Shown piece after piece: positions 1 through 5,284 of a DNA stretch of 64,000 nucleotides (positions are counted from its first letter, which is position 1; each line of letters starts with the position of its first letter). Under the pieces are notes generated by a model, which saw only the letters and a list, made by a program, of their open reading frames with translations, searched no databases and was not told the DNA's origin. The position numbers and the translations under genes were made by a program. Source of the DNA: Nitrospirota bacterium (GTDB lineage: Bacteria; Nitrospirota; Nitrospiria; SBBL01; JAADHI01); NCBI GenBank assembly GCA_029261135.1, contig JAJDBX010000005.1, positions 2,231 to 66,230 on the forward strand. Direction: 5' to 3'.

Positions 1-1121
1 GTGGCGGTGGGACGGGCGACACGCGGAAAGAAGGTGACGGGACTTGTGGTACGGTTCCCTGTCGCGTCTGTACAATTTTTGGGCGCAGCTACGGCGGGAT
101 TAATAACACAGGGCTGCTCTCCGACAGGAGGCGTCACATCAGTGTGAGGTGTCCCATCATCATCGACGACAAGCACAAGCAGATGCTCCCCCCCCGGTAT
201 CAGGGTGGGAGGCTGAAAACCACCCGGTGGAGGAAAGATGACTTGAACCGAGGTAGCGCAGGGGCTTCCACCCACAGTAGTATCTGCATCGGTGCCGTCG
301 AGACACGAACCGTCAGAACCCACAGCGACGTTGCCCACAATACAGGCACTGGTCAGGCGCTTCCAGTTAAAGGGATTGGCCTGGTCTGGATCATTGATAT
401 AAGTGAGCAGCGAAGCCCGGACACAGCCGGGCGCGGCCACGGCCAAGTCCGTGCTGGATTGATTTCGTATAGTCACCCCCCAGCCGTCCACATTCACCTG
501 CCAGTCGTCTGGGCTAAGTTCAGTGCTGATATCGGCATCATAGACACCCGTTCCGCCGATTCCTCCATCGGCGCCGAGGCTCTTTACGGTAAAGGTCGCT
601 GGAGGCGGGGTCGGATCATTAACCTTCCAGCCGTAATTTGGGAGGGCGGCGACATTCCAACCATCATAAAAGGCGACAACCGTACCGGGTGGCGATGTCA
701 GATAACTCCCTCCGCGATAACCTTTAAAAAGCTGTTCTCCAGAGGCAGAAAGTGGTATCCCCGCGTCGTCATTGATGCCGGTGACAGCATCCGGCTTAGG
801 GTCAAAAATCGGGTTCTTTAACTCATAACTGTCAAAATCTGTGGGTTTCATCAACAACCCCTGAATGTCATCAGGCAGCAGGCCATTATCCGCCGAATAA
901 CCCGATAATAAGCGCTGTCCGTTGTAAACCGCGCCCGTCTCTCCGATCACCGCACGGCGGATCAAATCCAAACGGCGACGGGTGTCTTCAAAACGGACTT
1001 GATTGTCTTTGTTGTCTACAATATCAATTGCGGAAAACGCGAGCGTGGAGAGAATCAGGACCACCAGCATCATTTCGAGCAGGGAGAAACCGCTTTGTGA
1101 AAACATGATTTTTCGGGTCAT
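1..1121 (-). CDS. Prepilin-type N-terminal cleavage/methylation protein (large pseudopilin-like), runs off the window start
   Basis: Not in the ORF track. Manual translation from ATG 1121 (or 1106): MTRKIMFSQSG|FSLLEMMLVVLILSTLAFSAIDIVDNKDNQVRFEDTRRRLDLIRRAVIGE... It has a class III signal (G|F-x-x-x-E5) and a later SLGADG motif like GspG, and stays open to position 1. Confidence 0.85.
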   Translation of the reverse strand, partial: MTRKIMFSQSGFSLLEMMLVVLILSTLAFSAIDIVDNKDNQVRFEDTRRRLDLIRRAVIGETGAVYNGQRLLSGYSADNGLLPDDIQGLLMKPTDFDSYELKNPIFDPKPDAVTGINDDAGIPLSASGEQLFKGYRGGSYLTSPPGTVVAFYDGWNVAALPNYGWKVNDPTPPPATFTVKSLGADGGIGGTGVYDADISTELSPDDWQVNVDGWGVTIRNQSSTDLAVAAPGCVRASLLTYINDPDQANPFNWKRLTSACIVGNVAVGSDGSCLDGTDADTTVGGSPCATSVQVIFPPPGGFQPPTLIPGGEHLLVLVVDDDGTPHTDVTPPVGEQPCVINPAVAAPKNCTDATGNRTTSPVTFFPRVARPTA

Positions 1122-1131
1122 TTTAATGGGA

Positions 1132-1662
1132 TCAATCTTCTTTATCTTTTTCGGCGGGTTTGTCGATGTCCTCAAACCAGGTCTTCAGCGCGGCGGAAAA
1201 CTGCTGCCATTCCGTGTGACGGTCAAAATCACTCACCAGGATACCGGGGCCGTATTTTGAGTTATAAACATGATAGCCGTAGAGGGTCACGCGGTCATCA
1301 ACAGACAAAGCGGCGAGTGCGCGTTTTGCCGTCTGATCTTCCATATAAACATTAAGTTGATGTCCCTTGAGTGAATGGATATCCAGCCCATGGGTCACTG
1401 CCGGCATCCGATTAAGTCCCCAACCCTCAAGCACATGCATTAAATAATGGGTCTTGCGCACCTTCGGCGGCGCGGCCACTTGGGCTTCGATCTGAATCAA
1501 AGGGAGCGGCAGTAATTCCACGGAGCCCTTCTGCCCCGGGGTGCCGTGTTCGATCATCTTGTCCAGATCCCGCGGGCTGAAGTCGGCGGAGTCGCCGGAA
1601 GCGCGTCCCGTCGATACGATCGTCAGCAGCAGACTTGATATCAATATCATTCGTTTCATCAT
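1132..1662 (-). CDS. Hypothetical exported protein in the pilin-like operon
   Basis: 176 aa with an N-terminal signal-peptide-like segment (MKRMILISSLLLTIVSTGRAS). Tightly packed between two prepilin genes on the same strand. Confidence 0.7.
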   Translation of the reverse strand: MMKRMILISSLLLTIVSTGRASGDSADFSPRDLDKMIEHGTPGQKGSVELLPLPLIQIEAQVAAPPKVRKTHYLMHVLEGWGLNRMPAVTHGLDIHSLKGHQLNVYMEDQTAKRALAALSVDDRVTLYGYHVYNSKYGPGILVSDFDRHTEWQQFSAALKTWFEDIDKPAEKDKED

Positions 1663-1696
1663 TTAAGTCTTCCCGCCTTTACGGCACGTTGTGCCC

Positions 1697-2470
1697 CTAT
1701 CGCAATAAACAAACCAGGAGATCATCTTCCTGGGGCGCACAGAGATTACAAGAATCGGTCGCACCACAGGTTACATTGCCGTCATAACGGCCATTCGGCC
1801 CCATGCTCATGAGACGCGCCCTATTTTCGTCACCCATTTCAAACATCAGGTAGGGTCGGCCGTGACGCTCATGCGCCTTGTCGCCGTCTCCATCATCTCC
1901 GTCTTTGTCATCATCAAGGGTGCGCCAGTCCAAGAGGCAAGTGTTATTGTCAACATCCTCTTCACAAGCCGCGTAGGAACCCGGTACCGCCGGAAACGCA
2001 GAAAAGGGATCGGCCACACCGCGAATATCTTGAACCTGAGCCCCGGTAACAGGTGATCCCCCGCCGTTGCTCAGCAGATCCGCACCGATGTCGGTATACC
2101 CTTCGCCCAGAGCACTCAAATACGGCCCGCGCCAGCCGCGCCGATTATCTGGATTCCAGAGGTTGGGCAGAACCACATCACCATAAAGTTCCAAAAAATC
2201 AGCCGGATTTGCCGGATTCGGCAGCGTCCCCATGTCGAGGCGGAACTGAAGGATCGCAGCTTTCACTTTCTGCATTTCATTCAAGGCCACGCTTCCCTTC
2301 GCTTTCTCCGCCGTCTCTCCCTGTTTAAAGATCATGCCGCCCGCCACGACCGCTAATATCGCGACGACGATCATTAATTCCAAAAGGCTGAAACCCGCCT
2401 GCCCGCGCACGAGCCGCAAAATACGGGGTGCCTCTATATTCATTGCCCGACCTGTCAACCGTTTGATCAT
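1697..2470 (-). CDS. Prepilin-type / GspG-like pseudopilin
   Basis: QAG|FSLLELMIVVAILAVVAGG; GWRGPYL, DPF, GRPY and SMGPNG motifs resemble T2SS major pseudopilins; Asp-rich loop and Cys pairs. Confidence 0.85.
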   Translation of the reverse strand: MIKRLTGRAMNIEAPRILRLVRGQAGFSLLELMIVVAILAVVAGGMIFKQGETAEKAKGSVALNEMQKVKAAILQFRLDMGTLPNPANPADFLELYGDVVLPNLWNPDNRRGWRGPYLSALGEGYTDIGADLLSNGGGSPVTGAQVQDIRGVADPFSAFPAVPGSYAACEEDVDNNTCLLDWRTLDDDKDGDDGDGDKAHERHGRPYLMFEMGDENRARLMSMGPNGRYDGNVTCGATDSCNLCAPQEDDLLVCLLR

Positions 2471-2490
2471 TCAATCTCGAATAGCGGAGA

Positions 2491-2532
2491 AGCACCGGGC
2501 GGGAAAGGGGGTGGAGAAAACCGCCCGGCGCT
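2491..2532 (-). terminator. Intercistronic stem-loop (mRNA stabiliser or partial terminator)
   Basis: AGCACCGGGCGG ... CCGCCCGGCGCT. Fully paired (one G-U) on the minus-strand transcript, directly after the first pilin gene, with a poor U-tract. Confidence 0.55.
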
Positions 2533-2553
2533 AAACACAGACTACGAGCCTGC

Positions 2554-3648
2554 TTAGGTCTTCTGTCCCGTGAACTCGGCCATCTCCTCGTCAAGGAAAT
2601 CACCCCGTGCATCAAGCACGGCCACGACGGTCGCGACGGTCGCGGGGAAGTGATCAGCAGGAAGAACAGTCGCCAAATCACCATCCAGATCGCGCCCTAG
2701 ATTCACCAGAATGGTGTAGTGGCTGTATTTATCCCGTCCAATTTGGCCCGCATAAAACGGCGCTTTGGCAAAGGGCGAACTTGGAAGGCCAACGGCATCG
2801 GAAGCCTGACCCAGGCCTAAACCGATCAGCACATCCGTTGCCCCGGCACCGACTTTTACGTTGTTATACCCATCTGTCCCACGATCCCAAACCATCAGCG
2901 CCGGAGTGGTCGCTCCGCCGAAATCGATGGTTCGCGCAAAACCCCTGCCGCGATTACGCTGACCCAAAAGACCTGGACGAGGGCCTTCAAAGGCATGATT
3001 GGGAATATTGTTTTCCGCCAGGGAAGCCTGGGGGAAAGGCGCCGTCGCAGAGGTGGGTCCTTTCGCCAACGCTGGAGTTAATGGATCTGTATCACAGGAT
3101 TCGCCGTCCGCATAACGCAGTGAGGTAATCCCCGCGGTAATGAGTGCCTGTCCCATACCAGTCGGTATTGAAACGAGGTTGAATTTGTTGGCGATGTTTG
3201 CGCCTAAACCGCCGCCGACACCCGGCAGATCACTTAATCCACCAAATTTAGAGGCTTGGGTTGTCGCTGCCCAGGTAGCGGGTGCGGGACCGTTGATAAT
3301 ACCAAGGCCTATTGTCGGATGCGCTGCCAGTGCAAAATCGAGACAGGTCAGCGACTCCAAGTTATTTGGAATCACGCCGTTCACGGCAACTTGAATACGC
3401 ATGGCATCTTCAATTCCCGCAATGGTTTGTGTTGCCACACCTCGACCCGCCTTCGCTTCCTGACCGCCGAAGGAGGAAATCATCGCACCGCCGATGACGG
3501 CAATAATCCCGACCACCACCAACATTTCAAGCAGGGTAAATCCATGCTCGTTGTTGATCAGGCGTAGAGCGCTTTGTTTTGGTTTTTTGTTTTGAACGGT
3601 TTTGTTCTGAATGTCTTCATCCTGAAGACTTTTGACTGTGTTTCTCAT
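2554..3648 (-). CDS. Large prepilin-type protein (364 aa), probable major subunit of the cluster
   Basis: NEHG|FTLLEMLVVVGIIAVIGGAMISSF class III signal; strong SD (AAGGAG) upstream; first pilin gene of the operon. Confidence 0.85.
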   Translation of the reverse strand: MRNTVKSLQDEDIQNKTVQNKKPKQSALRLINNEHGFTLLEMLVVVGIIAVIGGAMISSFGGQEAKAGRGVATQTIAGIEDAMRIQVAVNGVIPNNLESLTCLDFALAAHPTIGLGIINGPAPATWAATTQASKFGGLSDLPGVGGGLGANIANKFNLVSIPTGMGQALITAGITSLRYADGESCDTDPLTPALAKGPTSATAPFPQASLAENNIPNHAFEGPRPGLLGQRNRGRGFARTIDFGGATTPALMVWDRGTDGYNNVKVGAGATDVLIGLGLGQASDAVGLPSSPFAKAPFYAGQIGRDKYSHYTILVNLGRDLDGDLATVLPADHFPATVATVVAVLDARGDFLDEEMAEFTGQKT

Positions 3649-3808
3649 TTGAATCTCCTTTTAATAAGTTAATGTGAATGAGCCACTCTACCCACAAGAG
3701 CTGGACTCACGGTGTTACTTGGTCTGTGCGGGATACTACGCCGTGTGGACCCACTCCACCACGTCAAAAAACAATGCCTAAACAAATCGGGCTCCATAAC
3801 AAAAGCCA

Positions 3809-4228
3809 TCACACTGTCGGGCGTAACGCCCCAAAATACCGACGCCGATCACCTCCGATGCGGCGTTCCAATTTGAGATTTCTGGCATCGACCGATTGCC
3901 CTCTCCGTTCGATACCATTGCGGCGCTCTTCTCCAAGCCACTGAGGCAGTGCTTTCATCACATCTTTTCTTTGCACGCGATATCCGATATCAAGATCCCG
4001 GCCATCGACGACAAAACGATACTGCTTGCCACAACTGAGGACGACTTCCTTCTGTCCCTGACGTAAAAGACGGATTTCGAGCTTGATTTCGCCATAACCA
4101 TTGTGCCTGACAAGGTCCTCGTACAAATGGATAAATTGATCCAGCACCTTACGACTGGTCATCACCGCAGTGGACATAGACTTTCTCCTTTTCTCCGTGC
4201 CTGTTCTCATATTCGAGCCCTGTAACAT
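3809..4228 (-). CDS. Small hypothetical protein with a compact N-terminal domain and C-terminal Arg-rich ERR/DRR repeats
   Basis: GGGGAG SD upstream. HNGYGEIKLEIRLLRQGQKEVVLSCGKQYRFVVD core, then WLGEERRNGIERR...LERRIGGDRRRY. The true start could be an internal Met. Confidence 0.7.
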   Translation of the reverse strand: MLQGSNMRTGTEKRRKSMSTAVMTSRKVLDQFIHLYEDLVRHNGYGEIKLEIRLLRQGQKEVVLSCGKQYRFVVDGRDLDIGYRVQRKDVMKALPQWLGEERRNGIERRGQSVDARNLKLERRIGGDRRRYFGALRPTV

Positions 4229-4271
4229 CTGAAATTTTCACTCCCCAGATCGTGCGCCCGCCGGGCGCATC

Positions 4272-4318
4272 AAAAATAAAAAAAGCCCGGAACGGTTTTT
4301 AAACCGTTCCGGGCTTTT
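4272..4318 (-). terminator. Intrinsic terminator inside the operon leader
   Basis: Perfect 18-bp inverted repeat AAAAGCCCGGAACGGTTT-TT-AAACCGTTCCGGGCTTTT with a long U-tract on the minus strand, ~45 nt upstream of the ATG at 4228. Confidence 0.85.
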
Positions 4319-4372
4319 GGACGCTTAAAGTGAGATCGCTAGCCGCTCTTTAATCTTATTTTACAGAATCAA

Positions 4373-4389
4373 TTGATAATGATTCTCAA
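4373..4389. promoter_or_regulatory. Fur box
   Basis: TTGATAATGATTCTCAA; one mismatch to the 7-1-7 consensus TGATAATnATTATCA; just downstream of the predicted TSS. Confidence 0.8.
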
Positions 4390-4400
4390 AACTGTTTTCA

Positions 4401-4430
4401 ACAATAGCCGACGCAGAGGATTCTTGTCAA
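4401..4430 (-). promoter_or_regulatory. Sigma70-type promoter of the leader / pilin-like operon
   Basis: Minus strand TTGACA (4430-4425), 18-nt spacer, TATTGT (4406-4401). Confidence 0.65.
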
Positions 4431-4638: not shown

Positions 4639-4675
4639 AAAAAGCCCAGAACAATAAAAAATTGTCCTGGGCTTT
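4639..4675 (-). terminator. Intrinsic terminator downstream of the ferritin-like gene
   Basis: AAAGCCCAGAACAAT-AAAAA-ATTGTCCTGGGCTTT inverted repeat with U-run on the minus strand. Confidence 0.65.
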
Positions 4676-4753: not shown

Positions 4754-5224
4754 CTAGGACTGTGGACTGGAAAAAGCCCTGATTTCTCCCGGCCTGCGCA
4801 TCATCTTATCCACTTCCCCCTGGTGCATTTCTTCTTCGGTGATCATGCGCCGTGCATAGTCCTCCAACAATACGGAATGCCCTTCAACCAAGGCCAAAAG
4901 TTCTCGGTAGGTTTGAAGTGCCACGCCTTCGTGCGTCAAAGACTCGTGAAGGATATCGCCGATGTCATGCTGTTCGGTCTCCAGCAGGGGGCCGATCGCC
5001 AATGAAGGATGTCCGCCCAAATGCGTAATAAGTTCGCCAGCCTCCTGAGCATGCCCCAGGGATTGCACGGCCTGCTCACGCATCCAGGCGATGATGGGAA
5101 TCCGGTTATAACCGTAGACCATTAAGGCGTAGTGCGTGTAGCGCACGACCCCCGCAAGCTCCAGTTCCAAAATCCGGTTTAGTTTCTCAGTCGCGGCATT
5201 TTTGTCCAGTGTTTTTTCGTTCAT
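4754..5224 (-). CDS. Bacterioferritin-like ferritin-superfamily protein
   Basis: LNRILELELAGVVRYTHY...HAQEAGELITHLGGHP...EEEMH. Start placed at ATG 5224 (SD GGAGGG) rather than 5440. Confidence 0.85.
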   Translation of the reverse strand: MNEKTLDKNAATEKLNRILELELAGVVRYTHYALMVYGYNRIPIIAWMREQAVQSLGHAQEAGELITHLGGHPSLAIGPLLETEQHDIGDILHESLTHEGVALQTYRELLALVEGHSVLLEDYARRMITEEEMHQGEVDKMMRRPGEIRAFSSPQS

Positions 5225-5255: not shown

Positions 5256-5284
5256 ACAATATCGATAATAATTATCTTTTGCAA
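5256..5284 (-). promoter_or_regulatory. Sigma70 promoter with a Fur/PerR-family palindrome in the spacer
   Basis: TTGCAA - 17 nt - TATTGT on the minus strand; the spacer holds GATAAT-A-ATTATC (5264-5276). Confidence 0.65.

Follow-up and report, generated by a model that had tools for sequence, protein, structure and literature searches.

The DNA analyzed here is a 64,000-nt window of a Nitrospirota genome (GCA_029261135.1, contig JAJDBX010000005.1; G000:C35:2231-66230, where G, L, and C numbers label genomes, loci, and contigs). On its minus strand lies the 5′ end of a pilus operon of about 14 kb and 13 genes (Table 1). In the direction of transcription these are a small open reading frame (ORF), the genes for three large prepilins, with an ORF for a predicted oligonucleotide/oligosaccharide-binding (OB)-fold protein between pilins 2 and 3, and genes for PilM/N-like and PilO-like proteins, PilT, a PilB/GspE-type ATPase, PilC, a PilP-like protein, a secretin, and an OmpA-like lipoprotein. 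The PilO-like ORF is partial on C35; it and the PilM/N-like gene are named from their positions. It continues on contig C54, the end of which overlaps the start of C35 by exactly 141 nt. The same genes are contiguous in genome G337, in the order that is bridged across C35 and C54 in G000, and a contig of 18,962 nt from run X1, possibly the source sample, reaches 10,929 nt beyond the C54 end.

The original prediction, made from the window sequence, had described one minus-strand unit with a promoter, a Fur box, a leader ending in a terminator, and oversized prepilins, and had proposed that motor genes be sought to its left. PilT, the PilB/GspE-type ATPase, PilC/GspF, and the secretin do lie there, downstream in the operon. 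PilT and the conserved RNA family of the leader had been missed.

Table 1. Features of the pilus operon and its surroundings; positions are those of the window unless a contig of G000 is named.
Feature	Position	Strand	Remarks
Sigma-70-type promoter	4401..4430	-	-35 TTGACA, 4430-4425; -10 TATTGT, 4406-4401
Fur-type 7-1-7 box	4374..4388	-	
Conserved leader RNA	4272..4352	-	covarying hairpin (from 4346) and terminator
Leader terminator	4318-4281	-	17-bp stem and U run
Small conserved protein gene	3809..4177	-	122 aa; called protein P0121
Prepilin 1	2554..3648	-	364 aa; 36-aa leader ending in G; 328 aa mature
Stem-loop 3′ of pilin 1	2492..2533	-	12 bp; z -4.66; also in L012
Prepilin 2	1697..2470	-	257 aa; GspG-like, Cys-rich, acidic
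176-aa protein gene	1132..1662	-	signal-peptide-like N terminus; predicted OB fold
Prepilin 3	1..1121	-	378 aa; ends at C35:2215
PilM/N-like gene	C35:479-2215		579-aa ORF left of the window
PilT, PilB/GspE-type ATPase, PilC, PilP-like, secretin, and split OmpA-like genes	C54:45548-37852		
Ferritin-like gene	4754..5224	-	probable first island gene; PF00210, E 8e-18
Intrinsic terminator after the ferritin-like gene	4641..4675	-	weak copy of the leader motif family; model match C35:6866-6933, E 4e-4

Pilins, motor proteins, and classification

All three prepilins of the original prediction are present, pass TIGR02532 and PF07963, and are acidic (pI 4.3-4.9). The third, first seen as a reading frame of more than 370 codons running off the window, ends 16 nt to its left. 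Pilin 1, the predicted major pilin, has an acidic C-terminal DxxGDxxDEE motif. Structure prediction, which had also been proposed, gave a confident model (pLDDT 85.6) with a long helix and a large head; Foldseek returned no solved structure for it at E 0.001, and the best VIA-align match (Z 4.9) covers helices only. An unmatched head in a model does not prove a new fold. The stem-loop noted earlier between the genes for pilins 1 and 2 is borne out by its folding and its conservation, and it is predicted to raise pilin-1 mRNA above that of the downstream genes. Pilin 2 scores narrowly above the cut-off of PF08334 (22.1 versus 21) and below that of TIGR01710 (46.4 versus 88.85), and GWxGPY is invariant in an alignment of 10 sequences. 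Pilin 3 has a GADGxxGGxG loop, which we take to resemble the calcium loop of GspG. Shared homology of the pilin heads was considered and rejected, as profile comparisons align the first ~62 residues alone.

The 176-aa protein is the exported orphan of the original prediction. Its gene was found in four loci and is absent from G009, L019, and L020. The model, built from four sequences (pLDDT 71.7), has an OB fold whose matches are tied between RPA (Z 9.9, rmsd 3.0, 92 residues aligned) and YgiW (Z 9.1); the protein is not basic (pI 5.7). The only prepilin peptidase of the genome (PF01478) is encoded away from the operon, on C41.

The operon contains the generic type IV filament (TFF) set, with PF00437, PF00482, PF07963, and PF00263 all above cut-off, and it falls within the definition of a 'generic' TFF as an ATPase, an inner-membrane platform, and a pilin that is given in the passages available of Denise et al. 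2019 (PMC6668835). PilT scores above its family cut-off (TIGR01420, 427 versus 319.1 bits) and is present in all six loci that extend to its position, and its presence argues for a retractile pilus. The remaining family models all score below their cut-offs: PilB (TIGR02538, 449 versus 675.65), PilQ (TIGR02515, 133 versus 284.35), MshL (TIGR02519, 116 versus 250.2), GspE (466 versus 630.25), GspF (295 versus 424), and GspD (191 versus 351.35). The ATPase, platform, and secretin score slightly higher on the GspE/F/D than on the PilB/C/Q models. Three genes in the places expected for PilM/N, PilO, and PilP match none of the PilM/N/O/P families and are named by position; the PilP/GspC-like gene matches PF11356 at E 0.042 only.

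The secretin, of 729 aa, ends in a DUF3438 domain (TIGR03749, an integrating-conjugative-element family; G000:C54:38434-38900), and a similar tail is found in G337 and not in G009 or G024. Residues 174-197 of the PilM/N-like protein give a weak match to the cyclic-di-GMP motif of the MshE type (E 4e-4), at an invariant RFGE, a hint that this protein may take cyclic-di-GMP input.

Quick maximum-likelihood trees of the ATPases, with the host's own, Neisseria, Acinetobacter, and Aeromonas proteins as references, place the extension ATPases of the system in one clade (SH-aLRT 99 with six rows and 100 with five, in two trees) and its PilT proteins in a clade of their own (six rows, SH-aLRT 99). Both clades stand apart from the host's own and the reference rows of GspE, PilB, and MshE type, labels that were inferred from length and neighbors because the records are unannotated there.

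With type IVa pili (T4aP) the system shares PilT, a PilB-like ATPase carrying an MshEN domain, a PilC platform, a secretin, M/N-O-P-like genes, and a peptidase encoded elsewhere. It differs from them in being a single operon, in its three pilins of 231-369 aa when mature, with GspG-like ones among them, in having no FimT/PilVWXE/PilY1-like genes, in missing the PilB and PilQ cut-offs, and in ATPases that fall outside the PilB and housekeeping PilT clades. A PilA-type major pilin with FimT/PilE/PilX minor pilins was not found, and the prepilins were matched over the N-terminal helix only. With the type II secretion system (T2SS) it shares the single locus, the GspG-like pilin 2, and an ATPase, platform, and secretin that score best on Gsp models, whereas it has PilT and misses every Gsp equivalog cut-off; no GspH/I/J/K model scores above cut-off, the operon holding three prepilins altogether, and the host carries a separate canonical gsp cluster on C60. 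From the mannose-sensitive hemagglutinin (MSH) pilus it differs in the missed MshL cut-off and in an ATPase apart from the MshE-type rows (the label being inferred). Neither canonical T2SS nor T4aP fits by profile cut-offs or ATPase trees, as had been claimed from the gene order, and the sequences suggest that the system is probably an unnamed TFF subfamily of its own. The main text of PMC6668835 has no occurrence of the word iron, and the passages available describe no such clade. No description of this pilus system was found in the open literature searched, of which coverage was partial; members may be included among the generic systems in the supplementary tables of PMC6668835.

Promoter, Fur-type box, and leader RNA

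The promoter and the box of the original prediction both hold. The promoter hexamers match at 10 of 12 positions, and both regions are kept in L012. Perfect 7-1-7 matches number three in the 3.2-Mb genome, the Fur-type box of this operon among them, compared with 0, 1, 0, 0, and 0 in five shuffles. A 19-bp Fur consensus, also tried, did not single out the site, which scored 14/19 (115 sites at 14). Because the degenerate 7-1-7 pattern was composed after the site had been seen, the function of the genes at the other two perfect boxes serves as the independent check. One of these boxes heads an operon in which fur is accompanied by two porin-like genes and by genes for an ABC permease and its ATPase, and the other heads the gene for an Fe(III)-binding protein of FutA/FbpA type (PDB 7li0, E 3e-113). 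The host genome encodes fur, and repression of the pilus operon by Fur is very probable.

Fur boxes had also been expected upstream of homologs. They are found with at most two mismatches at 6 of 10 other pilin loci (background, 20 of 20000 60-nt windows) and not at L019 or L020. The boxes of G009, L016, L017, and L018 directly precede pilin genes, without this leader. G009 has a TonB/ExbBD cluster upstream, L056 has a divergent TonB receptor gene, and in G020 pilin 1 lies downstream of fur, a porin gene, and a multicopper oxidase gene, behind a perfect box. The pilus operons of L019 and L020 lie opposite genes for NarL-type (two-component) regulators, beside a gene for a pyrroloquinoline quinone (PQQ)-catabolism beta-propeller (above cut-off) or near one for a PepSY protein that matches PDB 9vy3, presumably lanpepsy, a lanthanide binder. 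Control of these two loci by lanthanides or methylotrophy is possible. Both (L019:4941-9879 and L020:115-2142) share a GGxAAxxTTCC-like upstream motif.

The terminator-ended leader that had been proposed is likewise real, folding at z -6.7, and has no match in Rfam. The 3′ side of its small hairpin overlaps the 5′ strand of the terminator. The hairpin recurs in five of six same-genus genomes, where it follows an ORF with a CxCGSL..ELKCxRC motif or a porin gene in iron operons, not pilin genes. A covariance model of eight copies finds it in 26 of 41 relatives at E 0.01. Thirty leader loci were fetched, seven of them used in training; among the 23 others, 17 are accompanied by a box no more than 50 nt away or by an upstream zinc-finger ORF. 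The genes 3′ of 12 scanned copies include those for TonB receptors (three), ExbB (two), a DUF3450 protein, a CbiX-like protein, and a multicopper oxidase, with three unmatched. The inner 3-bp stem is paired in 34 of 34 copies if two registers are allowed (mean 22.2 and maximum 28 in 10000 shuffles); a single register accounts for 25 of the 34 (shuffle mean 16.4, maximum 24). The pairs vary, for example between GGT/ACC, GAT/ATC, GCC/GGC, and GAA/TTC. A flanking GGC/GCC pairing would occupy the first bases of the terminator stem, giving an antiterminator layout.

Phage Mu Com/mom and the BglG/LicT antiterminators likewise have a small hairpin that overlaps an inhibitory stem farther downstream, and in relatives of the present locus a zinc-finger gene lies near the leader. 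None of five short zinc-finger ORFs has a Com-family Pfam match at E 0.1. Covariation and context indicate that the leader is likely a protein-operated attenuator, and on balance we lean slightly toward a zinc-finger protein as the factor that would control readthrough.

A Fur-boxed operon on C46 (G000:C46:2085-11343) encodes a porin-like protein, a zinc-finger ORF, an ApbE-FMN-binding fusion, Fur, a second porin-like protein, and an ABC permease and ATPase. The leader motif is present there in a second copy, which lacks a U-tailed terminator. Genes related to the porin and zinc-finger genes of this operon are found in several relatives, and the operon is a candidate for an unnamed iron-uptake module.

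The small protein encoded by the first ORF has 29 homologues and a conserved core of ~60 aa, HxGxG...GQKEV...CGKQYRF. The gene itself had been recognized, with a start at 4228; the start at 4177 is more likely, and the Arg-repeat tail by which it had been described is shared by just 5 of the 28 relatives that were aligned. The family heads iron-linked operons. On an Aquabacterium olei plasmid (NZ_CP029211.1; L112:19974-27248) a relative heads an operon with PEP-CTERM, TonB receptor, and heme ABC genes behind a Fur-like site, in the position usually taken by HemP. The small ORF was rejected as HemP itself, PF10636 matching 1 of 28 members at E 0.46; the likeness is positional only. The spacer that separates the small ORF from pilin 1 (3660-3800, minus strand) is as conserved in L012 as coding DNA, and a structured RNA in this spacer is unsupported (z 0.53 and 0.42 against shuffles). 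The GC-rich stretch right after the leader terminator (4250-4271, minus strand) resembles the 5′ end of group IIC introns, a likeness that is left as unproven; it gave no Rfam or viral-contig match and no exact match, and it is absent in L012.

Distribution and genomic surroundings

Profile searches indicate that the system recurs with its gene order kept in unrelated bacteria, yet is rare in the host phylum. The PilM/N-like profile is matched in 4 of 401 host-phylum genomes, G000 among them, and a full-length pilin 1 was found in none of six same-genus genomes. The pilin-1 and small-ORF profiles match 1 of 401 genomes in the phylum of G337, which is G337 itself. The pilin family is broad, with 195 of 7992 candidate proteins matching at E 1e-10 and 337 clusters counted at 50% identity. 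The proposed search for synteny showed that the order of the pilin operon is kept across several unrelated lineages: the complete machinery is in a single order in G000, G337, G009, and L056, the assembled parts of L076 and G024 agree with it, and the 5′ part of the order is kept in L015 and L017-L020. The G009 locus has neither the small ORF nor the OB-fold gene. Only 8 of 80 metagenome loci are true homologues; the other 72 were discarded, matching the N-terminal helix alone. The source names of PilT relatives, listed by PilT likeness alone and not by system membership, include Myxococcota, Planctomycetota, Nitrospirae, Nitronauta, Emcibacter, Pseudomonadales, and Propionivibrio. Homologues also carry the names Moritella sp., Bermanella sp., Propionivibrio sp., and Ca. 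Nitronauta litoralis, which makes these candidate carriers of the operon. The copy in G337, recorded as a metagenome-assembled genome of the Hyphomicrobiales, is 71-91% identical, ferritin gene included, and is either a recent transfer or a product of misbinning. Plasmids yielded no copy of the system in searches with pilin 1 (at 1e-15) and with the secretin (at 1e-60), and all plasmid PilT matches are below 48% identity. The viral contigs searched held no relative of the small ORF.

The GC richness of the unit relative to its surroundings, which the original prediction had pointed out, is confirmed by a value of 0.544 for window positions 1-3650 against a genome mean of 0.452 (sd 0.026), equalled or exceeded by 0.34% of 2972 genome windows. 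The ferritin-like gene, correctly seen to adjoin the unit, is probably itself an island member, as its sequence and context suggest: its third-position GC is 0.64, it was not found beside nadB in any of five same-genus genomes, and it accompanies the operon in L012. Only one of those five genomes has a relative of it, at 28% identity. A Fur-like site lies 5′ of the gene at about 5258-5282 (15/19 positions). The idea that the pilus-operon box serves a resident small RNA beside ferritin was rejected, as same-genus genomes have neither ferritin nor leader at nadB.

An IS110 fragment lies beyond the OmpA-like gene at the far end of the operon. The OmpA-like lipoprotein gene is in two frames in G000 (C54:37852-38434) and whole, with 256 aa, in G337; the split is real in the DNA, because the contigs compared there show no indel. 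The other 12 of the 13 operon ORFs are unbroken. Two further contigs of G000, C2 and C22 (GC 0.53; primase, integrase, RHS, transposase, and helicase genes), seem foreign to the 0.45-GC genome and are possibly bin contamination or mobile DNA.

Role of the filament

The favored reading, which is held tentatively, is that the operon encodes a self-contained filament machine of an unnamed subfamily, a retractile pilus of giant acidic pilins deployed in iron scarcity, by which particles or carriers loaded with iron would be drawn to the cell surface. Its basis is the gene content and order, the ATPase clades, the Fur-type box, the covarying leader, and the iron-gene neighborhoods of relatives. A retractile fibre with pilin 1 as the major subunit is, taken by itself, fairly likely from the genes present. 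Low iron would free Fur from its box, and the leader terminator would halt most transcripts unless the small hairpin were stabilized, probably by the C46 zinc-finger protein acting in trans. The C41 peptidase would process the pilins, with pilins 2 and 3 as minor or priming subunits; the PilB-type ATPase would extend the fibre through the secretin and PilT retract it. Uptake would fall to porins, a FutA-type ABC transporter, or TonB receptors. A bolder version is rather doubtful: that the pilin head has a new fold, that the fibre attaches to Fe(III) minerals or colloids and pulls them in, and that each host wires in its own metal sensor (here Fur and a zinc-finger RNA switch; in L019 and L020 possibly a PQQ/lanthanide-linked two-component system).

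Several observations weigh against a pilus devoted to iron. L019 and L020 are without a Fur box (3 and 5 mismatches), and L056 and L076 have 3-mismatch matches only. Pilin promoters of other lineages gave no match to the leader motif, which therefore looks like a host control module on a mobile machine. The controls for box and leader overstate significance because the patterns were written post hoc and the genomes compared are related to one another. CxxCH heme motifs are absent from the pilins, the aromatic content of which is low (6-7%), and pilins 2 and 3 resemble T2SS pseudopilins. The extension ATPase is sister, weakly, to GspE (support 63), the host has other pilus and T2SS systems with 11 PF00437 ATPases, and the last gene of the operon is split in G000. 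In the available part of PMC13170364, the iron role of a Legionella pilin is independent of the pilus.

The pseudopilin-like features could instead reflect iron-regulated secretion, in which a short pseudopilus would act as a piston that PilT resets. Its cargo would be proteins for iron acquisition, such as a multicopper oxidase or the OB-fold protein, pushed out by way of the secretin. Such a system would account for a pilin 2 that passes PF08334, for the slightly better GspE/F/D scores and the position of the ATPase in the quick tree, and for a single locus with a signal-peptide protein among its pilins. It is nonetheless unlikely: a GspH/I/J/K set was not found, PilT is constant here whereas the T2SS lost it (PMC6668835, passages available), the large first pilin with its conserved stem-loop suggests a high-copy subunit, and three loci (G009, L019, and L020) do without the OB-fold gene.

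Iron might also be a cue only, for a pilus with no direct iron role that serves adhesion, biofilm formation, twitching, or DNA uptake, as PilT-powered pili usually do according to the same passages of PMC6668835. The likeness of the OB-fold model to single-stranded-DNA-binding domains such as that of RPA would suit DNA uptake, and the different regulator of L019 and L020 also fits. The matches are tied, however, with YgiW, which is not a nucleic-acid-binding protein, and the OB-fold protein is not basic; the pilin of G020 is embedded in a fur/porin operon; and the host has separate PilB/PilT systems, so this explanation is quite improbable. Least credible is that the Fur promoter makes the ~120-nt leader as a small RNA only, with pilus genes that are iron-independent or part of a decaying island: the strong terminator ahead of the first ORF, the split last gene, and the IS110 fragment would agree, but other lineages have boxes directly before pilin genes that lack this leader, motif copies lie inside operons before TonB receptor and ExbB genes, where readthrough is needed, and all but one of the ORFs are unbroken.

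A retractile pilus for iron scarcity would have partial precedents in Synechocystis PilA1 (PMC4144903) and Legionella PilA2 (PMC13170364), pilins that, in the available parts of these papers, are linked to growth when iron is low or insoluble. Both are major pilins of ordinary T4aP, whereas the machine described here would be a dedicated one behind a Fur-type box. The finding bears on the access of marine and biofilm bacteria to iron in particles. The link between pilins and iron gain has so far come only from mutants in general-purpose pili; if the favored reading is true, a dedicated, Fur-controlled pilus in one operon, with a retraction motor and pseudopilin-like subunits, makes an iron role directly testable. 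The system would also be a new branch in the classification of type IV filaments, bearing on the origin of the T2SS from T4aP, and its leader is a candidate for a protein-operated iron attenuator that governs a surface machine.

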